31,922 nt of DNA, taken from the IMG/VR virus record IMGVR_UViG_2585427777_000013; one strand, written 5' to 3'. Within the stretch, counting starts at the first letter, position 1, and each line of letters starts with the position of its first letter. Source of the stretch: a virus (Duplodnaviria > Heunggongvirae > Uroviricota > Caudoviricetes). The position numbers were made by a program, and so were the translations under genes. The notes under the pieces were generated by a model. It saw only the letters and a list, made by a program, of their open reading frames with translations. It had not been told where the DNA came from and made no database searches. Below are positions 13,875 to 29,898 of the stretch, piece after piece.

Positions 13875-14394
13875 CAATCCACCTGCGCACATTCTCACCG
13901 GCTTCAGAAGCCACATCGGATGCTTTCGCGATTTCAGTTTTCACAGCATCAAGATGTACGGGTGATATATCAGGGTATTTACGCTGCAGTGTCTGAGGGA
14001 CACGGACAAGGATCCCTGATATATTCTGTGCCACTCGCTGAAAGATGTAGGTAAATAACTCCGTCTCGAGGACAAGGCCTTCCTCACGAGCATTTTTCAG
14101 CTCCTGTGCATCGGCCTGTGCCTTCGTCAGTCGGTAACGTTCGTAATCAATGGTGCCGGGCTGAAGGTCTGATTCGCTGGCAGCCCTCAAATCCTCGATC
14201 TCTTTACGGAGTTTTTCGTTTTCAATATCAGCTTCCCTCTGCGCATACCACTGAATGGCAGCAGTTGTATCAAAAACTGATTCAGTCCCTTTCCCTCCAC
14301 CAGAAACTAGTGGTAACCCCTGACTCTGCCAGGCGGTGATGGTCCTGACATCAACGCCAAAAATATCGGCCAGTTTTTTCTTATTGACGTTCAT
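13846..14394 (-). CDS. nu1: Terminase small subunit Nu1
   Basis: 182 aa, [24 protein letters not shown]...[54 protein letters not shown] matches lambda Nu1. Confidence 0.9.
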
Positions 14395-14600
14395 ACACTC
14401 CCCCGGGAACCAGAAAGGATCTGAAAATGGCGTTTTCTAACAAAAACAGCCTTTGTCAGATCCTTTTATATTTTTAAAATTCTATTGATAATCAATCAGT
14501 TAAAAAGAAGAAGAACGGATCTGATTTTTCCCTAAAAATTTTCATAAATAGCGAAAACCCGCGAGGTCGCCGCCCCGTAACGGCCCGGATCGCCGGAAAG
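14395..14600 (-). other. cos: cos region: cosN 12-nt cohesive-end sequence at 14564..14575 (plus-strand AGGTCGCCGCCC), cosB between cosN and Nu1
   Basis: Minus strand reads GGGGCGGCGACCTCGCGGGTTTTCGCTATTTATGAAAATTTT, matching the remembered lambda left end about 170 bp upstream of the Nu1 ATG. Confidence 0.8.
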
Positions 14601-14781
14601 GACCCACGAAATGATAATGATTATCATCTATATAAGGTTTATCACAACATGTGTGTACGCCATCAAACCACGAGAAATAATCAATTATGACGCAGGTATC
14701 GTATTGATTGATCTGCATCAAATTAACGTAAAAGCAACTTCAGATAATACAAATCAGCAACACTGAATATGGGGAAACATT

Positions 14782-14982
14782 ATGTCATCAAAGAACAGAA
14801 CCCGCAGAACAACAACCCGCAACATCCGATTTCCAAACCAGATGATTGAACAAATTAACATCGCTCTTGATCTGAAAGGTTCAGGAAACTTTTCAGCGTG
14901 GGTTATTGAAGCCTGCAGGAGAAGGCTGGCAACAGATGCAACGCATCTGCGCCCGGCCAGCATGAAAAATAACGAGAAATGA
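14782..14982 (+). CDS. ylcI: YlcI/YnfO-family small protein (DUF3950), prophage-associated
   Basis: 66 aa, MSSKNRTRRTTTRNIRFPNQMIEQINIALDLKGSGNFSAWVIEACRRRL closely resembles DLP12 YlcI as remembered; GGGGAA ribosome-binding site before the ATG; plus strand, next to cos as in DLP12. Confidence 0.78.
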   Translation: MSSKNRTRRTTTRNIRFPNQMIEQINIALDLKGSGNFSAWVIEACRRRLATDATHLRPASMKNNEK

Positions 14983-15113
14983 ACGTTCGGCTACAGGAGC
15001 AGGTACCCACTGTCCTCCAACAATATTTCATCTTCATATCCGACGGAACAAGACTTACCCTGCCGGGATGTACAGAATAACAACAGAGTGATAATTAATT
15101 TCTGATGAAATAA

Positions 15114-15446
15114 TCAGGGTGCAGAAGGACTAAAGATAAACGTTTTCTTCACGCCTTTACACGGCCTGTCCTTCTCAAATCGCCATTTTGCCATCGCCTT
15201 TACAACCTGCTCATCAAACAAATGGTGCGGCTCTGAACGGATAAACTCAATTCGGGTGACAGTACCATCAGCACCAATATCAAACTTCACATCAACCCGT
15301 CCCTTTATATAATTTGCCGCTGCATAGGCCGGATATTGTGGTAATGCCTTAACCAACTGTCGGGGCATATCTGTTTTATGTTGCGTACAGCCCATAACCA
15401 GAGAAGACAACAAAATAATTAACGGAAGGTTTCTTTTCATTTTCAT
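15114..15446 (-). CDS. Putative lipoprotein with TonB C-terminal-like domain
   Basis: Signal peptide with lipobox LVMGC; C-terminal PQYPAYAAANYIKGRVDVKFDIGADGTVTRIEFIRSEPHHLFDEQVVKAMAKWRFE resembles the TonB C-terminal domain; start set at an internal ATG (the track ORF begins at a GTG). Confidence 0.6.
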   Translation of the reverse strand: MKMKRNLPLIILLSSLVMGCTQHKTDMPRQLVKALPQYPAYAAANYIKGRVDVKFDIGADGTVTRIEFIRSEPHHLFDEQVVKAMAKWRFEKDRPCKGVKKTFIFSPSAP

Positions 15447-15784
15447 TCCCGGCACAGATAAGAATAAGTCTTATTCTAACAATGCCACCCTGTCGGTCAT
15501 CAATCCTCTGCTTAATGGCAACGACAATTATCCGACTTAAATCACAAATCAGACACATGACATAACAGAGCTTGCGAGGTAACACATCGTCCGGTTTCTT
15601 CCACCATCGCACCGGACCAGCGACCATGAGGGGACAACGCCGCGCTCCGTTAACACGGTAAACCCCGGTGTGTATCGTTTTTGATTATCCCCGCACACTC
15701 GCGCAGAGGAGTCTCCCGGTCGGGCTGCGGTCTCTGTTAATGCGGGGATACGGCGACAATACCGCGCATGGTTAATAAGGTCGC

Positions 15785-17472: not shown

Positions 17473-17597
17473 GGATATTTATCAGGATTTATCGGTTCCG
17501 AATCCCTGGATATGTTAAGTCTTCAGCCCGCCAGTGGTGGGCACTGGCGTAAACTCAACAATGCGAGATGGCTGCCTCGCAAAGATAAGGAACAGAT

Positions 17598-17873
17598 ATG
17601 AGTGAAGAAAATAGCAAAGAGAATACAGCACTTTTTGACAGAATTTTTACTCTTGAGTTACAGGTCGGTTTTCTTCTCCCAAAGATAATCAAAGCAATGG
17701 ATGCACTAAGTAAAAATAACGCTGTGTCAGATTACCTGATCGCCGAAATGGAACATCTAATTAAAGAAATACCAAAGACAGTTGCTCGTGATGATAAAAG
17801 ATTCCTCAAGGCTGCTGAAGATGCTCTTTCAACAGTGAAGCGCAGCTTAGATGCGCCGCGCGATCAAGAATAG
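17598..17873 (+). CDS. Hypothetical protein (cargo ORF inside the lysis cassette, opposite strand)
   Basis: 91 aa ORF with AAGGAA ribosome-binding site 5 nt before the ATG; AT-rich; no recognised family. Confidence 0.5.
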   Translation: MSEENSKENTALFDRIFTLELQVGFLLPKIIKAMDALSKNNAVSDYLIAEMEHLIKEIPKTVARDDKRFLKAAEDALSTVKRSLDAPRDQE

Positions 17874-18336
17874 TTTCTTTCATTTCATCTGCTGCAAGCA
17901 CCTCATTTTTTGTTGGGGTGCTTTTTTTCAATTCAGCGATATAGCACTCCAGTTTTTCAATGCGTGATTCAATATCATCGTTTTCTGACCGCAATGCCGT
18001 CGGTGGCGTCTTCAGAGAACCAGTAATTATTCCCGGTAGTTTTCCTCTGTAGGTTATCAACACATCCTGCGCCTCTAAAATTATGGGGCGCTTTTCCGGC
18101 AACGGACCATCCCCTTCACATAACCCGGCAGCAACATCCATGAAAAACTGCTTCGCCTGCTTTTTCGCCTCAGCTTCGTAAAACTCCAGCGTGGCATCTT
18201 CAGTACGGTCAAGACTAATCGCCACATCTGGCAACAACAGTGACGGATACCCACCAATTTCCAGTGCCACAGTAACAGTAATCTTATTCGGGTAATTATT
18301 TATCCCTTTAACAACCAGTTCGTATTTTTTCTTCAT
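17806..18336 (-). CDS. Hypothetical protein (cargo ORF between holin and endolysin)
   Basis: 176 aa ORF, ATG preceded by GGGGAGAG and starting 5 nt after the holin stop; AT-rich; no recognised family. Confidence 0.55.
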   Translation of the reverse strand: MKKKYELVVKGINNYPNKITVTVALEIGGYPSLLLPDVAISLDRTEDATLEFYEAEAKKQAKQFFMDVAAGLCEGDGPLPEKRPIILEAQDVLITYRGKLPGIITGSLKTPPTALRSENDDIESRIEKLECYIAELKKSTPTKNEVLAADEMKETILDRAAHLSCASLLKEHLQQP

Positions 18337-19269: not shown

Positions 19270-21213
19270 TTACGGGTTATTCACTTCCACTGTTATACTT
19301 TCAATCAGCACCGTATACGTCGCCGCTTTTGTGATATCCGTTACACGTAATTTGTCTGCCGCAAAAGAACCTACCGGAGACTGCGACAGCATGAACGGTG
19401 CACCATCCTGACCATCAATCACCGGCGTCACCTGAATGCTGTTATTACCGGCAAAACGGAAACCCAGCGTATGCCATTCGTTGTCAAATGCGCCGAATGA
19501 CCCCAGCTTCGTGTTCTGGTCAGCGTTACCCTTGTGGTACATCACGTTGAGGTCTGTGGCATCGCTCTGTACGTAAAACGACGCCAGCAGATTGTTACCG
19601 GCATTACCTTCCAGTGTGACACCCTGAGGCAATGAAGAAACCGGCCAGTACAGCGCCAGTGCGTACTGATTAGCCGTAAGCGCGCCATCGAGTTTAAAAC
19701 GACAACTGACAAGACCACCTTTACCCAGCAGGTCCGCACCATTACCAGCATCATGCTCAAGGTACCAGGGGGCTCTTCCTGTTTCCTTGGTCAGTTTCAT
19801 TGCCTTACCCCCGCTGGCTCCGGCATCATCCACGATTTGAGCCTTGCCACCTCCAGCAGCCCAACCCTGTGGTGTCAACCGTCCTTCAGACTCAGATGCC
19901 CGGTAAGCAAATAGCGTACTCATCGTCGTGGTGTCTGCGGGTGGCGTGGACGGTTTTGATGGTGTATCAGGTGACGGCTTCTCATCCGGTGGTGTCACGG
20001 TCTGCCCGCGCATCAATTCAGCCGTGCGCCCTGCATGGAGCATAATAGCTGAGGCCAGACGGTCTGAAATGACGCCCCTGCGTGCCCATGAGCTGAAATG
20101 GCTGTCACGCTGTGTCGAAACAAAACTGCCCTGGGTTCGGGATGCTGCACCGTAATACCCGACAGCCACAATATCCGGGTCTTCCGCCGGAGCATTCGTT
20201 GGCGTGCTCTGTCCATTCTCATCCGTCAGGAACGGTACAAAGAAAATATTCTGTGCTTCCCTGCCCTTGTAACCGCCATATACCGCCTCATATTTATCGG
20301 CGTTAAGATTCTTCCAGTAATACGTGGTGTCACCACAAATCCACGGCACCGAGCCAGCACTTCCGCCAACACACTGTGCAGAATATGCAGCCATATCAGC
20401 CCTGAACTGCTGCACCATAGTGGTAAACAGGCCGCTGTGCTGCTGACTGCCGTCCGCAAGATCATTTTCCCCCTGCATCCATACCACGGCCAGAAGCCTG
20501 TTTTTCGGGTTCTTCGACAGCGCCGCTTTTGTACGGAAGAGAAAATCCTGATACAGCGGTTTACCCACTCCCCAGCGGGCTGAATTTGCCGATGCGCCAG
20601 ACGTTTCGCTGAACGTGCCGTCATTCCCCACGGTTAAACCAGCCCCGCCACGGCAACAGGGCACCAGAAGAATCCCGGCATTCTGCGGGATATAAGGCAG
20701 AAGTTTTTTGGCAATATGCAGCCCCTGACCGACAGTCCCGTACTGGCCCTTACTCAGGTCTGCATGAGGATGGTTAAGTGCGCTCATGTCCTGAACATCA
20801 TGCAGACAGTGGTCTGCCGGAATAACGTCATTGTATGCACAGGTATCACCACCCGGCGTCACAGTGCTGCGACGGGCCAGCTGCTTAATACGGGAGTCAG
20901 GGCGATCATAGGTCTCCGGCAGAGGAAGCCCCTCACCATAGGCCATACCGTTCGACTGCCCGGCCAGGGGAATAACGTAGTAATACTCCGGTTCAGTGGT
21001 AGCCACTCCCGGAGAGCCACCAGCCCCTGTGTCGGGCACAACCACAGGCGTGGTCACATCACCCTCTGCGGCAATGGCCTGCATCAGTGTATAAGGCGTG
21101 ATAGCCACAGGACTGCCAAACGGCTGCCAGCCTTCCTTCAGTTTTTGTGTCAGTCGCTCCGCAAGGTCTGACGGCGACGCCGCCCTGACCACGTCATAGT
21201 GTTTAAATGCCAT
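19270..21213 (-). CDS. nanS: Prophage sialate O-acetylesterase (NanS-p-like; DUF1737 N-terminus + SGNH/SASA esterase + C-terminal lectin-like domain)
   Basis: Starts MAFKHYDVVRAASPSDLAERL (DUF1737-like); GQSN esterase block in YYYVIPLAGQSNGMAYGEG; strong GGAGG ribosome-binding site before the ATG at 21213; sits between the tRNA/stx locus and lysis genes as in Stx phages. Confidence 0.82.
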   Translation of the reverse strand: MAFKHYDVVRAASPSDLAERLTQKLKEGWQPFGSPVAITPYTLMQAIAAEGDVTTPVVVPDTGAGGSPGVATTEPEYYYVIPLAGQSNGMAYGEGLPLPETYDRPDSRIKQLARRSTVTPGGDTCAYNDVIPADHCLHDVQDMSALNHPHADLSKGQYGTVGQGLHIAKKLLPYIPQNAGILLVPCCRGGAGLTVGNDGTFSETSGASANSARWGVGKPLYQDFLFRTKAALSKNPKNRLLAVVWMQGENDLADGSQQHSGLFTTMVQQFRADMAAYSAQCVGGSAGSVPWICGDTTYYWKNLNADKYEAVYGGYKGREAQNIFFVPFLTDENGQSTPTNAPAEDPDIVAVGYYGAASRTQGSFVSTQRDSHFSSWARRGVISDRLASAIMLHAGRTAELMRGQTVTPPDEKPSPDTPSKPSTPPADTTTMSTLFAYRASESEGRLTPQGWAAGGGKAQIVDDAGASGGKAMKLTKETGRAPWYLEHDAGNGADLLGKGGLVSCRFKLDGALTANQYALALYWPVSSLPQGVTLEGNAGNNLLASFYVQSDATDLNVMYHKGNADQNTKLGSFGAFDNEWHTLGFRFAGNNSIQVTPVIDGQDGAPFMLSQSPVGSFAADKLRVTDITKAATYTVLIESITVEVNNP

Positions 21214-21300
21214 TATTCCTCCCCTTTCCGGGATTTTCCTCAACAGTTGCGGGCCACGGTCCGGCTACACGGAGAATCAAAAGAGGAGAACCGCAGCCCG

Positions 21301-22471: not shown

Positions 22472-22548
22472 TGGCGCGTTGTACTGGATTCGAACCAGTG
22501 ACCGATTGCTTAGAAGGCAATTGCTCTGTCCGGCTGAGCTAACAACGC
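22472..22548 (-). tRNA. argO: tRNA-Arg, anticodon UCU
   Basis: Hand-folded cloverleaf: acceptor GCGUUGU/ACAACGC, D-arm GCUC..GAGC, anticodon stem AUUGC/GCAAU with loop CUUCUAA, T-arm ACUGG-UUCGAAU-CCAGU, encoded CCA. Confidence 0.85.
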
Positions 22549-22561
22549 AGGATACAGATAA

Positions 22562-22638
22562 TGAACCGCCTTCGGGGACCCGAACTCCGCGCAACCAGCT
22601 TCGAAGGCTGGCGCTCTTTCCTGATGAGCTAATGGCGG
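22562..22638 (-). tRNA. argN: tRNA-like gene, anticodon loop CUUCGAA (UCG, Arg); imperfect, possibly degenerate
   Basis: Perfect D-arm and anticodon arm (CCAGC-CUUCGAA-GCUGG), but an A-A mismatch in the acceptor stem, an A-C mismatch in the T-stem, T-loop UUCGGGU (G at position 58) and UCA instead of CCA at the 3' end. Confidence 0.45.
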
Positions 22639-22645
22639 TATGTGA

Positions 22646-22721
22646 TGGTGGCCCTTGCTGGATTTGAACCAGCGACCTGGCGATTATGAGTCGCTCGCTC
22701 TCACCACTGAGCTAAAGGGCC
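22646..22721 (-). tRNA. ileZ: tRNA with anticodon CAU, most like tRNA-Ile2 (lysidine, reads AUA); Met not excluded
   Basis: Hand-folded cloverleaf closely resembling E. coli ileX: acceptor GGCCCUU/AAGGGCC, anticodon loop CUCAUAA, T-arm GCUGG-UUCAAAU-CCAGC, encoded CCA. Confidence 0.8.
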
Positions 22722-22749
22722 GAGCCAAAAAATAATAATCAGATGAAAA

Positions 22750-23463
22750 TCAATAATCAAGCCCTTGCCTGGATACATATCTGTCTGGCGGGAAGCCATA
22801 ATAGCGGTGAAATACAGAAATAAAGTAGGACCTGCTTGAATAACCGCATTTTTCTGCTATAGCCTGTCCATATCCATGCCGGGAACATAACATATTTACA
22901 GCAACACGCATCCGCTCTTCCAGCAACAAGCGACTGAACATGCCCCCTTCATTTTTCAGTTTTGTCTTTAACAAACTCTCACTCATATGCAACTGTAGAG
23001 CAATCGCACAAAGCGTCCAGCTTGCTGATATATCTGTCTGAATTATCGCCCTGACTTTGGCACTTATGCTGGATAAACATCCACTTAAAAACAATGACAT
23101 CCGTTCATCTGTTTCAAACAGAGACAGGCAGGCCATCATAAGAAACATATCCGTGGCCTCTCCGGAAAATCCCTGGCTGGTAATTAAAGCCGCAGCCAAC
23201 GCAGGATTGTTGGGTTCCAGCAACAGGTAAAGCGGAATGTCAGTCAGACGAGTCCTCGTCAGCTTATGCTGACTTTCCAGATATTGACTTACGACGGATT
23301 CGCTTATATCGACAATTTTAACTTTGCCATAATGCATAAGGAAAAGCTCCCTGATGCATTTGGTGGCCAGAACAACTGAGCCTGGCTTAAGTGACAACGT
23401 ATCCTTTTCAAGAAAAATATTAATTGGGGAGCAAACCATGATAACTGAACAGACAACAGCCAT
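22750..23463 (-). CDS. AraC/XylS-family transcriptional regulator
   Basis: 237 aa; C-terminal AraC-type HTH signature (..LLLEERMRVAVNML..GYGQAIAEKCGYSSRSYFISVFHRYYGFPPDRY); AT-rich; ATG start. Confidence 0.8.
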   Translation of the reverse strand: MAVVCSVIMVCSPINIFLEKDTLSLKPGSVVLATKCIRELFLMHYGKVKIVDISESVVSQYLESQHKLTRTRLTDIPLYLLLEPNNPALAAALITSQGFSGEATDMFLMMACLSLFETDERMSLFLSGCLSSISAKVRAIIQTDISASWTLCAIALQLHMSESLLKTKLKNEGGMFSRLLLEERMRVAVNMLCSRHGYGQAIAEKCGYSSRSYFISVFHRYYGFPPDRYVSRQGLDY

Positions 23464-23596
23464 TATAATTTTACTTTCATTAGCAATTGGTTAGCTCAAT
23501 TATAGCCCCAAAAGGTAAATTATCATCAACACATAAGCAAAGGACTGACAGGTGTCGCCCCCCACCAGCCGCCCATTCACCACAAATAAAAAGCCT

Positions 23597-23794
23597 TCAG
23601 GACTGAAGGCGTCTGTAACAACCGCACTGATAGTCTGCCAGACCCACCATAACAAGCTGGGTCAGTATTAACTGGCAGCGTTCGCGTGAAAGGTAAGTAT
23701 TCTGCGCAATCTCCCCGACGGTCGCCGGTTCGGTGACGCTTAATTCATTAAACACCACTCTGGCGGTTTCTGTCATATCCTGCTGTTTTAGCAT
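23597..23794 (-). CDS. Small putative HTH DNA-binding protein
   Basis: About 65 aa from an internal ATG (MLKQQDMTETARVVFNELSVTEPATVGEIAQNTYLSRERCQLILTQL); the longer track ORF begins at a TTG; divergent from the DUF262 gene. Confidence 0.35.
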   Translation of the reverse strand: MLKQQDMTETARVVFNELSVTEPATVGEIAQNTYLSRERCQLILTQLVMVGLADYQCGCYRRLQS

Positions 23795-23913
23795 GTCTTT
23801 TTCCCTTTTCCGGTTAACGTGACACACCAATAACTCTTGTCGAAAAAGCCAGCAAGCTGAAAGACAGGTATTCGCAACCACCAGCACGTTTAACGTACTG
23901 CGCCGTTTTTCGG

Positions 23914-23937
23914 ACACAAAAAACCGCCTGGCGGCGG
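23914..23937 (-). terminator. Weak terminator-like hairpin on the minus strand in the HTH/DUF262 intergenic region
   Basis: Minus-strand CCGCC-gcca-GGCGG followed by TTTTTTTG; stem is only 5 bp. Confidence 0.3.
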
Positions 23938-24047
23938 GTTTAAGCTGTGTGGCGTAGTAACCACTCTTAACACGATATAATATTTTTTGCGTACGCGTTA
24001 TAGTTTTCTTACAATCTATTTCCAACTCCAATTAAAGGAACAGTGAT

Positions 24048-25205
24048 ATGACCACACTCAAAGAACTCAAAGAAGAGCTTGCTCAGATTCAAGATGAAAA
24101 CGCGAAAAATAGAAAAAAAGCTGAAATTGCAGCCTTGGTCACTTCTGCCGACAACGAGATTAGGCTTGCTCAGAGAAATATTGGATACAACGTACGTGAA
24201 TGGACCGTTGAATTAATTGTACAAAAGTATGGCAATAATCTTGAAACTGACAAAAACGAACTTTTTATTCCTGATTATCAACGCGATTACAAATGGGATA
24301 TCAAAACAGCCTCTCGATTCATCGAAAGTATATTATTAGATTTTCCAATCCCGTACCTCTACATCTCCGACGTATTTAATGAAGATCCTGAGTTGGATGG
24401 TCGTGTAGAAATTATTGACGGTTCACAAAGGATTCGCTCAATTTACTACTTTTGGAACAATCAGTTTGAATTGAAAGACTTAAAAGAACTCAAAAGTTTA
24501 GAGGGCTTCAAATTTTCAGATCTTTTGGCTAGCCGCCAGAGGCGATTTTTAAGGGCATCACTAAGATTTATTGAATTGAAAGGTGATGTTGAGGAGCAAC
24601 ATAGAAGAGATTTATTCGAAAGAATAAATTCAGGTGTTAAGAGACTGGAAGCGATGGAGGTTAGACATGGTTCAGATGCGGCCACTTCAATTTTCTATAG
24701 GGATGTTGTGACTCCTTGCTCAACAAATCCACTTTTCGCTAGTCTAGCTCCATTATCAGACCGGAAACGTTCGAATGGCGATCATCGTGAGTTAGTTTTG
24801 AGATTTTTTGCATACTTAAATGATTTAGAAAATTATAAGGGTTATGTCGCTCCTTTTATTGACAATTATCTTAATGTTCAGGCCGAAAGGGTCACACAAC
24901 AAGATGTAGACAAATTTAAACATGATTTTGAAAGCATGCTTGCTTTTGTAGATGCTCATTTCCCTATGGGGTTTAAAAAGACACCAACAAGCAAAACCAC
25001 CCCCCGTGCTAGATACGAAGCCATAGCAGTGGGAACTGCTCTTGCCTTAAAAGCCAATCCACATCTACAGGCTCCGGTTATTCCTGTAGGAGACTGGCTG
25101 TTTGGGGAGGAATTTGAAACCATAGTTACTGCTGATAGTGCCAACAACACCAGCCAACTCAAAAACAGAATATTTTATGTCAAAGATAAATTATTAGGAA
25201 TGTAA
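24048..25205 (+). CDS. DUF262 (ParB/GmrS-like NTPase) domain protein with no recognisable nuclease domain
   Basis: 385 aa; DUF262 hallmarks IPDYQRDYKW and IIDGSQRIRSI, plus ..DLFERINSGVKRLEAMEV..; AAGGAA ribosome-binding site; AT-rich; plus strand, opposite to the phage backbone. Confidence 0.8.
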   Translation: MTTLKELKEELAQIQDENAKNRKKAEIAALVTSADNEIRLAQRNIGYNVREWTVELIVQKYGNNLETDKNELFIPDYQRDYKWDIKTASRFIESILLDFPIPYLYISDVFNEDPELDGRVEIIDGSQRIRSIYYFWNNQFELKDLKELKSLEGFKFSDLLASRQRRFLRASLRFIELKGDVEEQHRRDLFERINSGVKRLEAMEVRHGSDAATSIFYRDVVTPCSTNPLFASLAPLSDRKRSNGDHRELVLRFFAYLNDLENYKGYVAPFIDNYLNVQAERVTQQDVDKFKHDFESMLAFVDAHFPMGFKKTPTSKTTPRARYEAIAVGTALALKANPHLQAPVIPVGDWLFGEEFETIVTADSANNTSQLKNRIFYVKDKLLGM

Positions 25206-25207
25206 CT

Positions 25208-25897
25208 ATGAGTTTGATTGATTTAAGAGATGAATACGAAGAAAGAGCAAGAGATATTATGGAATTGCTTTCTCTTGCGTCATCTTTAGAGGCTCAGACT
25301 CAGCAGTTAGATCAGCAAACGCATAAAGATGAAATAGAATCAAATACCCTTAGGGTTAACATTTTAAAATCATCCGTGCACATGATGCTGTACAATCAGG
25401 TTGAAAACACTGCCAGAGGATGCATTGAGTCAATTTATGACCATTTGCAAGATAATGAAGTAAATTACGCATCACTCAGGGAGAAATTCCAAGTAAATAT
25501 CTTGCACCGTATCATTTCAGATAATGAATCGGGAAAATCTCTTTATCAAAAAATTGGTTCCGATATATCTAAAAGGATCATTTCAGCCTCATTAAACATA
25601 CGTAAAGAATTCAATGGTAATGTTTGCAAGTCTGTATTGCACAAAATAACACAAGCTTACGGAATAACTGTTGCAAACTCACCAGAGTGTAGAAATGGTG
25701 TTGACTTAGATTTACTTAAAGATATCAGAAATGAGCTGGCACATGGAAGTACCAGCTTTTCTAAAAAAGGTCAAATAGACCCTTTAGAAGAAGTCAAATC
25801 GAGGTCAGAAAGAATTGATCTATATTTGCGTTTATTAATCAACTCAACAGAAAATTATATTACCTCTAACGGGTATTTATCCCCTCAACATGTCTGA
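25208..25897 (+). CDS. Predicted HEPN-domain protein (R-x4-H motif), partner of the DUF262 gene
   Basis: 229 aa; C-terminal LKDIRNELAHGSTSF contains R-x4-H; ATG 2 nt after the DUF262 stop with AGGA ribosome-binding site; predicted helical. Confidence 0.6.
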   Translation: MSLIDLRDEYEERARDIMELLSLASSLEAQTQQLDQQTHKDEIESNTLRVNILKSSVHMMLYNQVENTARGCIESIYDHLQDNEVNYASLREKFQVNILHRIISDNESGKSLYQKIGSDISKRIISASLNIRKEFNGNVCKSVLHKITQAYGITVANSPECRNGVDLDLLKDIRNELAHGSTSFSKKGQIDPLEEVKSRSERIDLYLRLLINSTENYITSNGYLSPQHV

Positions 25898-26906
25898 TAA
25901 ATGTTTCCCCTATTATCTGACCAATTATAGGGGGAACAGCATTTCCAATCATTGTCCCCAATTTTTGGAATGAAAAAGGCGTCTCCTTGTCAAGGAATTT
26001 ATAATCCATTGGAAAGGATTGCAAAATCGCAGCTTCACGCAAAGTTATGGCGCGATTTTGCTCAGGATGGCCAAATCGTCCATTTCCATATCCATAACAC
26101 TGGGTAGTTATCGTAGGGCTAGTATCGTCCCAAACCATCCGTCCATAAACGCTTTTATAGGTAGCACCTGAATTCTTTTTATGACAGTCTGCTCTAATTT
26201 CTTCAGGCCAGTCATCCCACGTACCACCAGGTAAAGAATGCATGATTCGTTTAAGATTGATATCCATCAATTTAGGCGAACGATGCAAGGGATCGCTTTC
26301 CAGCTTCTCACCTGCCCCTACTTTTGGCAACCTACCAATAGCATCCTTAACAGTAACTTTACGGCTAACTTTTTTTTGATCAAGGCTGATCGGCCCCAAT
26401 TGGGAACCAATTAGAATTAATCTACGTCTATTTTGAGGTAAGCCATACTCAGAACATCTTACAACGTCGTACCACAAATGATATCCAAGAGTCTTTAATG
26501 CACTAACAAACCCTTCAAAAACCTTATGGTTTCTAAGTTGAGGAACATTCTCCATCGTCACAAGCTCTGGCATTACATCACTTACAAGCCTTTGAAACTC
26601 ATATAACAAACGCCACTTTGTATCGTCTTTACGGCTATTTGGATTACGATACTTGGAAAACGGTTGGCAAGGAGCACATCCAGCAAGCAATCTAATATTT
26701 CCTTCCTTGAACATAGCAGACACATCGCAGGATTGCAGTTCTGTAACTGACTGATTAATGAACTGCGTTAAAGGATTATTGCTCTCAATAGCAAAACGGC
26801 AGGATTCATCAATATCAATACCATGAGAAACCTCAATCCCGGCTTTTTTTAGCCCAAAAGTTAAGCCCCCCGCACCACAAAAAATGTCTACTGCCTGAAT
26901 GTTCAC
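25866..26906 (-). CDS. DNA (cytosine-5)-methyltransferase, no restriction endonuclease gene recognised nearby
   Basis: 346 aa; motif I DIFCGAGG, motif IV GCAPCQPFS, motif VI ENV, motif VIII QNRRR; GTG start with GGAGA ribosome-binding site; 3' end overlaps the HEPN gene 3' end by 32 nt on the opposite strand. Confidence 0.9.
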   Translation of the reverse strand: MNIQAVDIFCGAGGLTFGLKKAGIEVSHGIDIDESCRFAIESNNPLTQFINQSVTELQSCDVSAMFKEGNIRLLAGCAPCQPFSKYRNPNSRKDDTKWRLLYEFQRLVSDVMPELVTMENVPQLRNHKVFEGFVSALKTLGYHLWYDVVRCSEYGLPQNRRRLILIGSQLGPISLDQKKVSRKVTVKDAIGRLPKVGAGEKLESDPLHRSPKLMDINLKRIMHSLPGGTWDDWPEEIRADCHKKNSGATYKSVYGRMVWDDTSPTITTQCYGYGNGRFGHPEQNRAITLREAAILQSFPMDYKFLDKETPFSFQKLGTMIGNAVPPIIGQIIGETFIRHVEGINTR

Positions 26907-26924
26907 AAGATTCTCCGTTACTTT

Positions 26925-26950
26925 ATCCTGGTATTATATACACATAAAAG
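26925..26950 (-). promoter_or_regulatory. Candidate promoter in the 63-nt gap between Q and the methyltransferase (extended -10-like TGTGTATATAAT); possible pR'
   Basis: Minus strand reads ..ctttcccaacttttatgtgTATATAATaccagg..; no convincing -35; position matches where pR' follows Q in lambdoid phages. Confidence 0.25.
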
Positions 26951-26969
26951 TTGGGAAAGTAGAACGATT

Positions 26970-27338
26970 TTACATAGAACTTAAGTCATTGTAGTAAATG
27001 AAAAATGACAAGCAGCCATCAATAAACCCCATTGCTGTTTGCATCTCTTTCCGTATTGTTCCATCTGAACATTTCCGTTTTTTAGCAATAGCGCGTAATG
27101 AGATACCAATAACAAAGTGAGCAATGATCAACTCATACTCTTCGGGTTTATACTTTCGCAACCGAGCCACACAACCGTCTATCATGATACCTTCGTCATC
27201 ATCACACTGGAGACGTGACTTTTTACCGTGTGGTAAAAGCCCCTTGAAGCCTGCTGCTATCGGCTGCCAGTCCACACCACTGTTATCTGCTGCAGCCCAG
27301 GCCCCCCAACGATCTAAAACTTCGTACATATCACGCAT
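26970..27338 (-). CDS. Q: Late-gene antitermination protein Q (Q82/QuuD-type)
   Basis: 122 aa, MRDMYEVLDRWGAWAA..IAAGFKGL..C.DD...I..GC.ARL.K.. resembles DLP12 QuuD as remembered; lies between replication genes and the late region. Confidence 0.7.
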   Translation of the reverse strand: MRDMYEVLDRWGAWAAADNSGVDWQPIAAGFKGLLPHGKKSRLQCDDDEGIMIDGCVARLRKYKPEEYELIIAHFVIGISLRAIAKKRKCSDGTIRKEMQTAMGFIDGCLSFFIYYNDLSSM

Positions 27339-27604
27339 CAGCGCAGTACCTCCTGCACCAGTTTTTCAAACTTACCAACTCTGGTTTCCAGCTCTGCCAC
27401 ACAATCCACCAGCTCATCCACTGCTTTTTGTGCACGGTGTTTTGCCTGCAGCAGATCACGAAGCGCCGGAGTAAGCTGCTTGCGGAGCGTATCTTTTTTC
27501 ACGCTCGTTTTTTCCATCTGTTCAGCACAACGAAGCATCTCCTGCGCCTGCCGACGAAGTTGTTCCGGTGAAACAGTGATTGTTCTGTTGTTCAAAATAA
27601 ACAC
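27338..27604 (-). CDS. Hypothetical coiled-coil protein
   Basis: 88 aa ORF between the helicase and Q; GTG at 27604 with poor ribosome-binding site, alternative ATGs at 27538 and 27517. Confidence 0.35.
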   Translation of the reverse strand: MFILNNRTITVSPEQLRRQAQEMLRCAEQMEKTSVKKDTLRKQLTPALRDLLQAKHRAQKAVDELVDCVAELETRVGKFEKLVQEVLR

Positions 27605-28992
27605 TCCGTTTTACTGCCCGACATGCGGTTATTGCTGTATCTGCGCGGATTGCCCGGCGTCATGGGTGTGGAAAGAACCCGGGCACTCTCCTGGTCCACA
27701 GGCAGAAAATGTCCGTTATGAAAACGCCGGTAAATGGTCCCGAGCGTGCCATTACGCTGTTTCGTGATGTTGATTTCTGCTATGCCTCTGGCCTGAGTTT
27801 CCGGGTTGTATACCTCATCCCTGTAAAGCATCAGAATGATGTCGGCATCCGCCTCGATTTCCCCGGAGTTTTTCAGGTCCGAGTTCATTGGGCGTTTATT
27901 GGGTCTGGATTCCACGCCGCGGGAGAGCTGGCTCAGAGCAATCAGCGGAAAACCGCCGGATTTTGCCAGGCTTTTAAGTCCCTTTGAGATTTCCCCCACC
28001 GCAAGGTCGTGACGCCCCGTGCTGCGGGTTTTAATCAGGCCGAGGTAATCGACCACCACCAGCGCCGTTTCCGGGTGTTTCATCCGGTGGTGCTTCGTGG
28101 TTGCACATATCTCATCAATGGTCAGGTTTGCCTGGTCCACCATCCAGATATTACGCCCCGTCATTCGTCCCACGCCCTGCGAGAAACGCGCCCAGTCTTC
28201 ATCTTCAAAACGGGCAACAGACTTAAGACGGGATACCGGCATTCCACCGGCAGCAGACACCATGCGTTCACCAATCTGGATGTTCGCCATCTCCATGGTG
28301 AACAGAAGCACGCCATGCCCCTGCTCAGTCACCTTGTCGATGATGTCCAGCGCAAGTTCGGTTTTCCCCATCGAAGGACGGGCGGCAATGAATACCAGGT
28401 CTCCGGGCTCCATACCGCCCGTTTTTGCGTCCAGTTCATCAATACCGGTCATCAGCGCCCTGGATTTCTCCAGTCCCTGATTGCGGCATTCAACACGGTC
28501 GACCACTTCCGGAAGGACATCATCAATGTGAACCGGCTGAATGACGCCCTTTCCGGTCGACAGTGAGGCCATCATGTTCTGCGCATCCTTCAGGGCATCC
28601 TCGGCTGCTTCACAGGTATACGCATCACGTAAATTCTGTAATGCTTCAGTCAGTGTTTTTTCTGCATCACGCAGTGCGGCATTGCGCCGCAACGCTGCGA
28701 CATAGTGCTCCAGTGAAGACTTCACCCAGGTTTTGCGTCCGGTGTCGGTAATCACCGGGGCAAGTTCCGGCATCTCATTGCACAGCAGTACGGGGTCAAT
28801 GACGCCGGATATGCGAGCCTGTCTGCAAATCCCCGCGTAAATATCCCGGTACTGACGCACAAAAAATACATCCGCCGGAAGTGTGGCCAGAATATCCATC
28901 ACTTCCGGATCGGCCCCACGCAGAAAAAACGCACCGATGACAGCGCCTTCCAGGTCATCGTTACGCCATGCCGGGGTGTTCTGGCTGGTCAT
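27592..28992 (-). CDS. Replicative DNA helicase (DnaB family)
   Basis: 466 aa; DnaB-type Walker A (AARPSMGKTELALD) and other RecA-fold helicase motifs; ATG start. Confidence 0.9.
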   Translation of the reverse strand: MTSQNTPAWRNDDLEGAVIGAFFLRGADPEVMDILATLPADVFFVRQYRDIYAGICRQARISGVIDPVLLCNEMPELAPVITDTGRKTWVKSSLEHYVAALRRNAALRDAEKTLTEALQNLRDAYTCEAAEDALKDAQNMMASLSTGKGVIQPVHIDDVLPEVVDRVECRNQGLEKSRALMTGIDELDAKTGGMEPGDLVFIAARPSMGKTELALDIIDKVTEQGHGVLLFTMEMANIQIGERMVSAAGGMPVSRLKSVARFEDEDWARFSQGVGRMTGRNIWMVDQANLTIDEICATTKHHRMKHPETALVVVDYLGLIKTRSTGRHDLAVGEISKGLKSLAKSGGFPLIALSQLSRGVESRPNKRPMNSDLKNSGEIEADADIILMLYRDEVYNPETQARGIAEINITKQRNGTLGTIYRRFHNGHFLPVDQESARVLSTPMTPGNPRRYSNNRMSGSKTECLF

Positions 28993-29888
28993 GCGGCAAC
29001 ACCTCCGATACGAGAACGGTAGCTGGGCCAGTTAAACGACAACCAGTTGCGCCCGCCATCGGTGATCCTGTCGGCAATCCGGGGACTGATGAACGCCCAC
29101 AATTCTTCCGGTGAAAGGTTGCTGATCAGGATAGTTGGCAAAATACCCTCATACCGGGCATTGATAATTTCCTGCAAAATGGCCATTTCAGCCGCACTGC
29201 CAAACTGAACGCCGACTTCGTCGACAATCAGCAAATCCAGTGACGCATAATGCTCAATGACGTCATCCGCTGTTTTTTCACTGTCATTCCGCCAGCAGTT
29301 TTTCACAGCCCGGGTAAGGCGCATCACGTCGGTGATCTCCACACTGGCCAGATAGTTACGGATGATGTGTTTTGCCATTGATACCGCCAGATGATTTTTC
29401 CCGGTACCGCAACTGCCGGTCATAACAAGACTGGTACCGTTCTCCAGCATATCTGGCCAGTTCTCCGCATAGCGGCGACAGGCCGCAAGATTTCTGGCTG
29501 CGTCAGGATTAACCTCCAGATAATTATCAAACTCGCAGTCCCGAAAACGCAGAGCAATTCCGGCGTTATCAGTCAGTTCTTCCGCCTTGAGGGACGACAG
29601 TTCCATGGTCAAATCACTGGCCTCAGCGATCAAGCAGTCAGGGCAGCATGAAATTTTTTCTCTGTCCTCGCCATTACGATCGATCCACACCAGTATATGC
29701 GTACGATATTTACCGTGTTTTTCGCAATATCCGCGACCTTCACGCATCAGGCAGGAACGATAAGGCCATGGCTTTTCGCCCTTCTGAGCAAATGCAATCT
29801 CTGCCCGTAACTCATCCATTTCTGCCCGTAACTCATCCATTCGCGCCTGTAGTCTTGTTTGTTTCTCACGTTGGTCAATCGTCATCAT
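28989..29888 (-). CDS. DnaC-like helicase loader ATPase (IstB/DnaC AAA+), N-terminal Cys-rich region
   Basis: Walker A GSCGTGKNHLA and Walker B LLIVDEVG; start placed at an ATG with GAGGT ribosome-binding site (the track ORF starts at a GTG 3 codons upstream); contains a 21-bp in-frame tandem duplication. Confidence 0.85.
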   Translation of the reverse strand: MMTIDQREKQTRLQARMDELRAEMDELRAEIAFAQKGEKPWPYRSCLMREGRGYCEKHGKYRTHILVWIDRNGEDREKISCCPDCLIAEASDLTMELSSLKAEELTDNAGIALRFRDCEFDNYLEVNPDAARNLAACRRYAENWPDMLENGTSLVMTGSCGTGKNHLAVSMAKHIIRNYLASVEITDVMRLTRAVKNCWRNDSEKTADDVIEHYASLDLLIVDEVGVQFGSAAEMAILQEIINARYEGILPTILISNLSPEELWAFISPRIADRITDGGRNWLSFNWPSYRSRIGGVAA

Positions 29889-29898
29889 CGCTGTCACC

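Follow-up and report, generated by a model that had tools for sequence, protein, structure and literature searches.

A stretch of 31,922 nucleotides (nt) of viral DNA (Caudoviricetes; IMG/VR record IMGVR_UViG_2585427777_000013), called the window here, represents a Shiga toxin (Stx)-type lambdoid prophage which is stx-negative and whose lytic direction corresponds to the minus strand. Between the antiterminator gene Q and a tRNA cluster it contains an AT-rich block (22750-26906) for which a first-pass annotation, made from the sequence alone, had listed an AraC-family regulator, a small open reading frame (ORF), a DUF262-HEPN operon and a methyltransferase; gene calls and Pfam searches identified the same gene content. 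This block is composed of two independent accessory modules and is not a single uniform island. In lytic direction, the features from Q to the tRNA genes are as follows.

26970-27338, minus strand: antiterminator Q (PF06530, E = 3e-47; distant match to the Q21 structure 6P18)
26907-26969, minus strand: spacer of 63 nt between Q and the methylase gene, with TATAAT at 26938-26933 and a GGAG ribosome-binding site (read from the sequence)
25866-26906, minus strand: C5 cytosine DNA methyltransferase, Dcm-like, co-directional with Q (PF00145, E = 9.5e-54; PADLOC MTase_II, E = 1.6e-87)
25208-25897, plus strand: HEPN_MAE_28990 protein of 229 amino acids (aa) (PF18737, E = 3.8e-16, above the curated cut-off; PF18735, E = 6.7e-8)
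24048-25205, plus strand: DUF262/GmrSD_N (ParB-like) protein, first in a two-gene operon (PF03235, E = 1e-25)
23966-24015, minus strand: late promoter pR′, placed by homology to the pR′ of Sakai prophage Sp5, with a putative start at ~23965
23918-23965, minus strand: pR′ leader, +1 to +48, with a GUGG-loop-CCAC hairpin followed by a GC hairpin and T-tract (23937-23918)
23597-23794, minus strand: ORF of 65 aa, phrog_331 (PHROG E = 7e-37; TrmB family in some records)
23610-23593, minus strand: terminator-like hairpin after the 65-aa ORF (terminator scan)
22736-23526, minus strand: AraC/YdeO-like module, coding sequence 22750-23463 (PF00165, PF12833)
22472-22721, minus strand: tRNA cluster ileZ-argN-argO, encoding tRNA-Ile2(CAT), tRNA-Arg(TCG) and tRNA-Arg(TCT) (ARAGORN; Rfam tRNA matches)

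The GC content of the block is 0.403, compared to a mean of 0.529 (standard deviation 0.030, minimum 0.468) for the other 4.2-kb segments of the sequence (z = -4.1), which bears out the earlier impression that the block is clearly richer in AT than the phage backbone. The GC content at third codon positions (GC3) revealed the same deviation, with values of 0.32 for the DUF262 gene, 0.30 for the HEPN gene, 0.34 for the dcm-like gene and 0.45 for the AraC gene, against 0.61, 0.55 and 0.55 for the backbone genes encoding DnaB, the NanS-p-type esterase and the DnaC-like protein. The block is not homogeneous: a stretch with backbone-like GC content (~0.50) at ~23550-23950, which includes the 65-aa ORF (GC3 0.56; RefSeq annotates this version and not a 144-aa reading), separates a 3-kb cassette with a GC content of 0.381 (z = -4.6) from the AraC module with 0.437. 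The Q gene is also AT-rich in its 3' half (0.436 for the whole gene). Two other AT-rich patches with GC contents of 0.41-0.44 were observed at 14000-15500 and 17500-18000, in the lysis and terminase-proximal region of the prophage.

Comparison with related prophages located the true insertion at ~24016-27010. It comprises the genes of the C5 methyltransferase, the MAE_28990-type HEPN protein and the DUF262/ParB-like protein, and it replaced the 3' tail of Q, whose final ~13 codons fall in the variable region. DNA homology to other Q alleles ends at 27010-27016, and the C-terminal tails of the Q proteins diverge right after GF(I/V)DGCL. Further homology breakpoints were found at ~24000-24015, on the pR′ side of the cassette, and at ~23527 and ~22735, on the two sides of the AraC module. 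An empty site is present in the Stx2a phage Stx2_EH2201, where homology to the window from 23994 onward begins 16 nt beyond the Q stop; here Q is followed by the leader, the 65-aa ORF, a DNA methylase gene, the tRNA genes and stx2AB. In the O104:H4 prophage and in strain JB2, Q is followed by another two-gene antisense cassette and then by the same 65-aa ORF, an AraC gene and the tRNAs; the AraC protein of O104:H4 is identical to that of the window (WP_000301785.1). The slot of phiP27 is occupied by a GIY-YIG gene, and ST131 genomes carry the cassette of the window with a 1.05-kb DNA methylase gene instead of the AraC gene. The 65-aa ORF, a conserved backbone accessory 3' of pR′, occurs in phages with an empty slot as well as next to other cassettes.

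These comparisons divide what had been proposed as one horizontally acquired moron island. Acquisition holds for the DUF262-HEPN-methylase cassette, which is absent from Stx2_EH2201 and replaced by other genes elsewhere; of 5426 complete E. coli genomes, 107 carry it. The AraC gene and the 65-aa ORF, which are found with other cassettes, do not belong to this insertion. The assumption that only pR′ and the terminator tR′ lie between Q and the tRNAs of Stx-type phages is correct for Sakai Sp5, with 442 bp between Q and ileZ, and incorrect for many others, Stx2_EH2201 and phiP27 among them. The alignments thus delivered insertion boundaries and an empty site, but no junction signatures: direct repeats of at least 7 nt were not found at the cassette ends. 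A chimeric query of Q and leader detected no empty site with exactly this Q allele in E. coli genomes; empty sites occurred only with other Q alleles. A search of the INPHARED phages with the whole region returned no record covering more than 28% of the query. The cassette would have been dropped by recombination between the end of Q and the late promoter, replacing the last Q codons. The 63-nt spacer behind Q (AACTTTTATGTGTATATAATACCAGGATAAAGTAACGGAGAAT) resembles a sequence (AACTTTCATGTGTATTCCAGGACCGACTAAAGATAGCGAGAAT; locus L005, 3445-3500) that flanks the JB2-type cassette at its other end, adjacent to pR′, a likeness which may be a recombination scar or chance.

To describe the slot, defined as the interval from the Q stop to GTTAAGAGTGG, we surveyed 120 IMG/VR loci with a pR′ leader, in 100 of which a Q gene was recognisable. 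Seventeen of these 100 slots are empty, with Q ending 28-39 nt ahead of the leader, and the other 83 hold inserts, 0.5-3.8 kb in size, which form 29 sequence clusters. The genes are oriented antisense only in 23 clusters, sense only in 4 and mixed in 2, and the GC content of the inserts is mostly 0.30-0.42. One cassette can be found with different Q types, and one Q type with many cassettes. The cassette of the window sits at a fixed site which is empty in Stx2_EH2201 and in 17 IMG/VR loci and for which 28 alternative cassettes exist.

The Q-pR′ slot is a defence hotspot, because its occupants include Kiwa (KwaA, E = 2e-83; KwaB, E = 2e-150) and several candidate systems of PADLOC, namely PDC-S60, PDC-M53A/B, PDC-S42 and PDC-S20 (PifA-like). 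PADLOC also matched a 596-aa OLD-like ATPase-Toprim protein (HEC-04/ATPase-Toprim_I-B), which in the cassette of loci L158 and L204 accompanies another C5 methylase, of 346 aa and encoded in antisense; this cassette is a second methylase-linked, non-canonical nuclease system of the hotspot. About half of the scanned cassette proteins had no match in PADLOC. Cassettes without a match occur in L004 (1057-3449), L146, L090, L116, L202, L161, L176, L136, L096, L125, L109 and L145, and examples are the 391-aa 'nucleoid-associated protein' of O104:H4 with a 404-aa partner as well as pairs of 308-aa and 182-aa membrane proteins. These unmatched cassettes are unexplored defence candidates. Literature searches returned nothing specific on a Q-pR′ or lambdoid defence hotspot, which is not proof of absence.

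The position of pR′ relative to the cassette decides how late transcription bears on it. Three features of Sp5 of strain Sakai have been mapped, namely the start site of pR′, an RNase E cleavage position at +173 (GU|AUU) and the 3' end of tR′ at +258 (Sy et al. 2020, PMC7547250). We re-anchored the start site on NC_002695.2 from the RNase E site and the 3' end; the A of GATAAG-A-GTGG (L210, position 1046) was the sole fit, which places GUAUU at 1217-1221 and +258 where the T-tract of the second terminator ends. The Sp5 -10 hexamer is TATCAT, and the stop codon of Sp5 Q sits within the promoter spacer, in the palindrome TACGATCGTA. The window could be aligned to Sp5 pR′ from -10 to +50, which by homology assigns TATCGT (23977-23972) as -10 hexamer and ~23965 as start. 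Upstream follow a Q-type-specific palindrome, GCGTACGC, at 23996-23989 (-31 to -24) and an A-rich, UP-like tract, TAAGAAAAC, at 24011-24003. By this homology, pR′ of the window should lie 3' of the cassette and fire away from it. The first-pass annotation had suggested that Q-dependent late transcription runs antisense through the DUF262-HEPN operon and silences it; this idea is unsupported, because pR′ starts at ~23965, beyond the cassette, and transcribes away from it.

Two independent comparative signals from the 120 loci, the -10 hexamer and a spacer palindrome, support this placement of pR′. The hexamer occurs in 10 forms and conforms to TAnnnT in 100 loci; all forms share A at position 2 and T at position 6, whereas the bases in the middle vary. 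Without exception, the DNA which the cassettes contribute at -46 to -38 is rich in A (TAnAAAAAn), and this tract may act as an UP-like element making up for an absent -35 hexamer. At -31 to -24, a palindrome of 8-10 bp co-varies with the Q protein cluster without exception in the 100 loci, across many different inserts:

GCGTACGC: 1 Q cluster, 30 Q genes, 11 insert-size classes
GCGGTCCGC: 2 Q clusters, 39 Q genes
TAC(G/A)ATCGTA: 1 Q cluster, 18 Q genes
GTTATAAC: 1 Q cluster, 12 Q genes

As the palindrome stays beside the leader and not beside Q, it is a candidate Q-binding element of this Q family.

A strongly conserved element (GTTAAGAGTGGTTACnnGCCACACAG followed by the GC hairpin and T6) lies just below the cassette, and the first ~50 nt of the pR′ transcript (23965-23918; L210 1046-1095) are near-invariant across phages of different Q types. 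An Rfam search with the leader matched no family. We had considered the hairpin at 23937-23918 as tR′ and the conserved 75 nt as the small RNA StxS, and rejected this assignment since the element corresponds to the -10 hexamer and the first ~50 nt of the leader of pR′; mapped tR′ and StxS-short lie farther downstream in Sp5. Transcription evidently passes the terminator-like hairpin of the Sp5 leader (+26 to +50), as tR′ was mapped at +258. In the window, the candidates for tR′ are the hairpin from +29 to +48 and that at 23610-23593 behind the 65-aa ORF. Two further promoter assignments were discarded. The pattern TAnnAA-N5-TAACGCG at cassette junctions is no -10 region, as alignment in the Sp5 register puts it at -46 to -38, and the TATAAT directly 3' of Q (26938-26933) is not pR′, as the Sp5 homologue is 3' of the cassette and the Q-type element stays with the leader. 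The late control region is of the Stx type, with a PF06530 Q followed by pR′, located by homology to the mapped Sp5 promoter, and its leader; ileZ-argN-argO are present as well, followed by a TerB-domain ORF in place of stxAB.

In the lysogen, the methylase unit and the DUF262-HEPN unit would each use their own promoter. Candidate motifs, none of them called by a consensus scan, are TATAAT at 26938-26933 and, upstream of DUF262 on the plus strand, TATAAT at 23976-23981 and TACAAT at 24009-24014. The spacer 26907-26969 is a candidate methylase promoter for the lysogen, with no good -35 hexamer. Only 71 nt separate the DUF262 start codon from the pR′ leader, so that the promoter of DUF262-HEPN must overlap the upstream half of pR′; one can speculate that the two promoters compete. 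The only phage transcript to enter the cassette would be the early transcript derived from pR and running through Q, which would be sense for the methylase gene and antisense for the HEPN and DUF262 genes. No obvious terminator is present between Q and the methylase gene of the window; many other cassettes have a hairpin terminator right behind the Q stop. A terminator-like hairpin with a weak T-tract at 25734-25757 on the minus (phage-sense) strand, inside the HEPN coding region and ~110 nt beyond the methylase stop, could limit antisense read-through into HEPN and DUF262.

The methylase shows the PCQ and ENV motifs, and its gene is convergent with the HEPN gene, the 3' ends overlapping by 32 bp; as in a classical restriction-modification (R-M) system, a methyltransferase with catalytic motifs is linked to the putative restriction component. 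The DUF262 protein matched the PADLOC models NsnA (E = 5.6e-46, residues 16-313) and PD-T4-2_A (PDLC04027, E = 4.3e-27), with the better score for NsnA. Pfam assigned GmrSD_N to residues 69-206 and did not find DUF1524 in this protein, which is a predicted nucleoside triphosphatase (NTPase) and DNA sensor. The HEPN protein, a predicted nuclease effector, carries the motif R174-x4-H179 which is invariant in 17 homologues; among PADLOC models, it matched none of NsnB, NsnC and PD-T4-2_B (the latter at E <= 0.01). A sequence search of the PDB found no relative of the DUF262 or the HEPN protein.

The cassette is complete in all 107 E. coli genomes that carry it, 73 at >=99% and 34 at ~87% identity. 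The 87% allele occupies the same slot in a different lambdoid prophage, and a plasmid search gave no match. A Yersinia mollaretii prophage has the order Q-methylase-(HEPN, DUF262)-holin in the same orientation, with a gap of 30 nt between Q and the methylase gene. For a distant comparison, we collected 80 loci through HEPN relatives with 23-37% identity, which are spread over Cyanobacteria, Proteobacteria, Actinobacteria, Bacteroidota, Verrucomicrobia, Planctomycetes and Leptospira. DUF262 is the upstream neighbour of HEPN in all 80, and an orthologous C5 methylase gene is adjacent in 68, namely convergent downstream as in the window (42), co-directional downstream (13) or upstream (13). The methylase is the most conserved component with a median identity of 51% to the window protein, followed by DUF262 (41%) and HEPN (28%). 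With a catalytic Rx4-6H HEPN protein and adjacent DUF262 and methylase genes, the cassette has the features of the MAE_28990 HEPN-ParB-methylase operon; the triad is an instance of this computationally described module, which appears to be experimentally untested.

In GmrSD, BrxU and SspE, DUF262 domains sense the modification of DNA in an NTP-driven manner (PMC10952713). This precedent, together with the conserved linkage to one methylase family, suggests a modification-based discrimination of self and non-self. The methylase would place 5-methylcytosine (m5C) at a fixed site in host and prophage DNA. The modification state of DNA would be read by the DUF262 protein, as an NTPase with a DNA-binding domain, which would confine the attack of the HEPN nuclease to unmarked phage DNA entering the cell or to the transcripts of this DNA. 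By analogy, the trigger could be either unmodified sites, as in classical R-M systems, or the licensing by modified self sites known from Ssp-like systems.

We consider it likely that the window carries a three-gene R-M-like defence cassette in the Q/pR′ hotspot and, separately, a YdeO-like AraC gene in a second slot. Composition, boundaries, diversity of the hotspot, synteny and domain content are the observed grounds for this reading, to which homology adds the probable position of pR′; mechanism, promoters and expression are what we infer for it. Several points weigh against it. HEPN domains are usually RNases and not DNases, and the characterised DUF262 proteins GmrSD and BrxU attack modified, not unmodified, DNA. 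PADLOC calls no complete system, and the HEPN protein of the window is not matched by the PD-T4-2_B model. Twelve of the 80 distant loci lack an adjacent orthologous methylase gene, 3 of them at or near contig ends. For the pR′ of the window, the -35 position (TAACGC) shows practically no match, and the start was assigned by homology to Sp5. Finally, PD-T4-2 functions without a methylase (PMC9519451).

This last point also favours an alternative in which the three genes are chance neighbours: DUF262-HEPN would be a stand-alone system, similar to PD-T4-2 or to Type IV systems, and the methylase an orphan co-transcribed with Q which shields phage DNA from host restriction. The methylase gene indeed follows Q on the same strand after 63 nt, or 30 nt in Yersinia, phage orphan methylases are common, and this phage family has another DNA methylase gene near the tRNAs. 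Without functional coupling, however, it is hard to explain why 68 of the 80 distant loci, which are mostly not from phages, have the orthologous methylase gene adjacent, and this in three gene orders; moreover, the convergent 3' overlap is conserved and the three genes were never found apart in E. coli (107 of 107 complete). We regard a chance association as unlikely.

The original proposal of a single 4-kb moron island between pR′/tR′ and the tRNAs, with a late Q-dependent transcript antisense to DUF262-HEPN that silences the cassette during lytic growth, is very improbable. It would account for the high AT content of the entire stretch relative to its flanks, for the mere 442 bp from Q to ileZ in Sp5 and for the TATAAT just 3' of Q. 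It conflicts with the occurrence of the AraC gene and the 65-aa ORF with other cassettes, and of the latter also with empty slots, and with the backbone-like GC content between the two AT-rich parts. Furthermore, the homologue of the mapped Sp5 start is 3' of the cassette, the Q-type-specific element travels with the leader and not with Q, and in many loci the 3' end of the cassette or a hairpin terminator abuts or overlaps the Q stop and leaves no room for a promoter. That the low GC content reflects ordinary mosaic variation of lambdoid regulatory and early regions, with the genes being ancestral backbone, is hardly credible: the GC content of Q (0.436) and the patches at 14000-15500 and 17500-18000 would fit, but the genes are present in 2% of E. 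coli genomes, the site is empty or held by 28 other occupants elsewhere, GC3 values of 0.30-0.34 are far under those of all backbone genes measured, and the closest relatives of the triad are scattered over many phyla.

The second part of the favoured two-module reading, the AraC module (~22736-23526), is an independent accessory slot beside the tRNAs. Over its entire length, the AraC protein is similar to YdeO (NCBIfam E = 3.9e-31, well short of the equivalog cut-off), and it belongs to a large phage family (phrog_1450, E = 7e-99); its module holds the best promoter-like site of the region (23526-23499). In related phages, the AraC gene alternates with the 1.05-kb DNA methylase gene. The loci L002, L008, L009 and L104 have between the 65-aa ORF and tRNA-Ile (22736-23526 in the window) an AraC/YdeO-like gene, a methyltransferase gene or both (L104), and Sakai Sp5 has a methylase remnant there. 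Prophage AraC-like regulators PsrA, PsrB and PatE control acid resistance (PMC10877973); the AraC protein of the window is like them in kind and prophage context only.

Beyond the two modules, the window contains the following neighbours.

28989-29897, minus strand (phage-sense): DnaC-like protein
27592-28992, minus strand (phage-sense): DnaB
27338-27604, minus strand (phage-sense): ORF of 88 aa
21870-22373, minus strand: TerB-domain ORF (PF05099, E = 1e-15)
19270-21243, minus strand (phage-sense): NanS-p-type esterase

The TerB-domain ORF lies between argO and nanS-p, where Stx phages have stxAB, and in strain MLI109, whose prophage is otherwise nearly identical, this position is taken by the anti-adaptor gene iraM. 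The argO/nanS-p interval looks like another swappable slot.

The Q-pR′ interval governs Shiga toxin output. Toxin levels have been related to an unexplained heterogeneity of the 'pR′ region', for which no structural basis was given (2018 study, PMC6266700). Much of the Q-pR′ heterogeneity is swappable defence cargo placed exactly between Q and its promoter, which provides a concrete map for reading 'pR′ region' types and a bounded place for mining new defence genes. The triad itself is widespread, occurs in clinically important ST131 lineages, is missed by current defence finders and is without a structure, and therefore represents a candidate ready for testing. The co-variation of palindrome and Q type leads to a testable prediction of Q-binding sites for this Q family; among the by-products of the analysis, this predicted element and the exact location of the hotspot, between Q and the promoter on which Q acts, are the most useful. 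A more far-reaching, joint proposal can be put forward only tentatively, and we would sooner bet against it than for it: the Q/pR′ junction of Stx-type lambdoid phages would be an undescribed, dedicated anti-phage hotspot with at least 29 occupants in this sample, and the triad a distinct, phylum-spanning R-M-like class in which a ParB-like NTPase reads m5C and gates HEPN. If this is true, divergent cassette promoters interlock with pR′ and the Q-type palindrome, by which prophage defence could be wired to the lysis switch.

Among known systems, the closest in gene content is the association of MAE_28990 HEPN, ParB and DNA methylase noted computationally by Anantharaman 2013 (Biol Direct, PMC3710099, Table 1). 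It shares with the cassette a HEPN_MAE_28990 protein with intact Rx4H, adjacent ParB-like DUF262 and methylase genes and a wide phyletic spread; it is, however, a one-line computational annotation without mechanism, experiment or prophage context, whereas the triad of the window is a prophage-hotspot cassette with an orientation fixed relative to Q. PD-T4-2 is a DUF262 and HEPN pair validated against T4 (Vassallo et al. 2022, PMC9519451). Both are two-gene DUF262 and HEPN arrangements of E. coli, the PD-T4-2_A model matches the DUF262 protein of the window, and PF18735, the HEPN family of PD-T4-2, matches its HEPN protein. With 1.54 kb for its two genes, PD-T4-2 is considerably smaller, and the cloned system contained no methylase, in contrast to the window with its tightly linked C5 methylase and no PD-T4-2_B match. 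In Menshen (NsnABC; Millman 2022; Li et al. 2025, PMC12065111), NsnA is the proposed sensor and some loci lie beside lone methylases. NsnA is the best PADLOC match of the DUF262 protein, over ParB-DUF262 and the following DNA-binding region; the window lacks the NsnB ATPase and the NsnC effector and has the HEPN protein in their place. GmrSD, BrxU and SspE also use an N-terminal DUF262 NTPase domain to couple recognition of DNA modification to a nuclease, but the window has no DUF1524/HNH domain, and its nuclease would be the separate HEPN protein. GmrSD and BrxU lack a cognate methylase and cleave DNA that is modified, whereas SspE couples self-modification sensing to defence, which is the closer logic.

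With respect to its surroundings, the window shares with the late region of Sakai Sp5 and 933W (PMC7547250) the Q family, the homologous -10 region and leader of pR′, ileZ-argN-argO and downstream nanS-p; it differs by the absence of stx, by the 3-kb cassette upstream of pR′ and by the 65-aa ORF and AraC gene between leader and tRNAs. The Q-pR′ slot resembles the hotspots of P2 and P4 prophages (Rousset et al. 2022, PMC9122126; Vassallo 2022) in being a fixed site between conserved genes with many interchangeable AT-rich anti-phage cassettes. In contrast to these hotspots, it belongs to another phage family and another location, wedged between an antiterminator gene and the promoter on which the antiterminator acts, and the promoters of its cassettes must therefore interlock with pR′.

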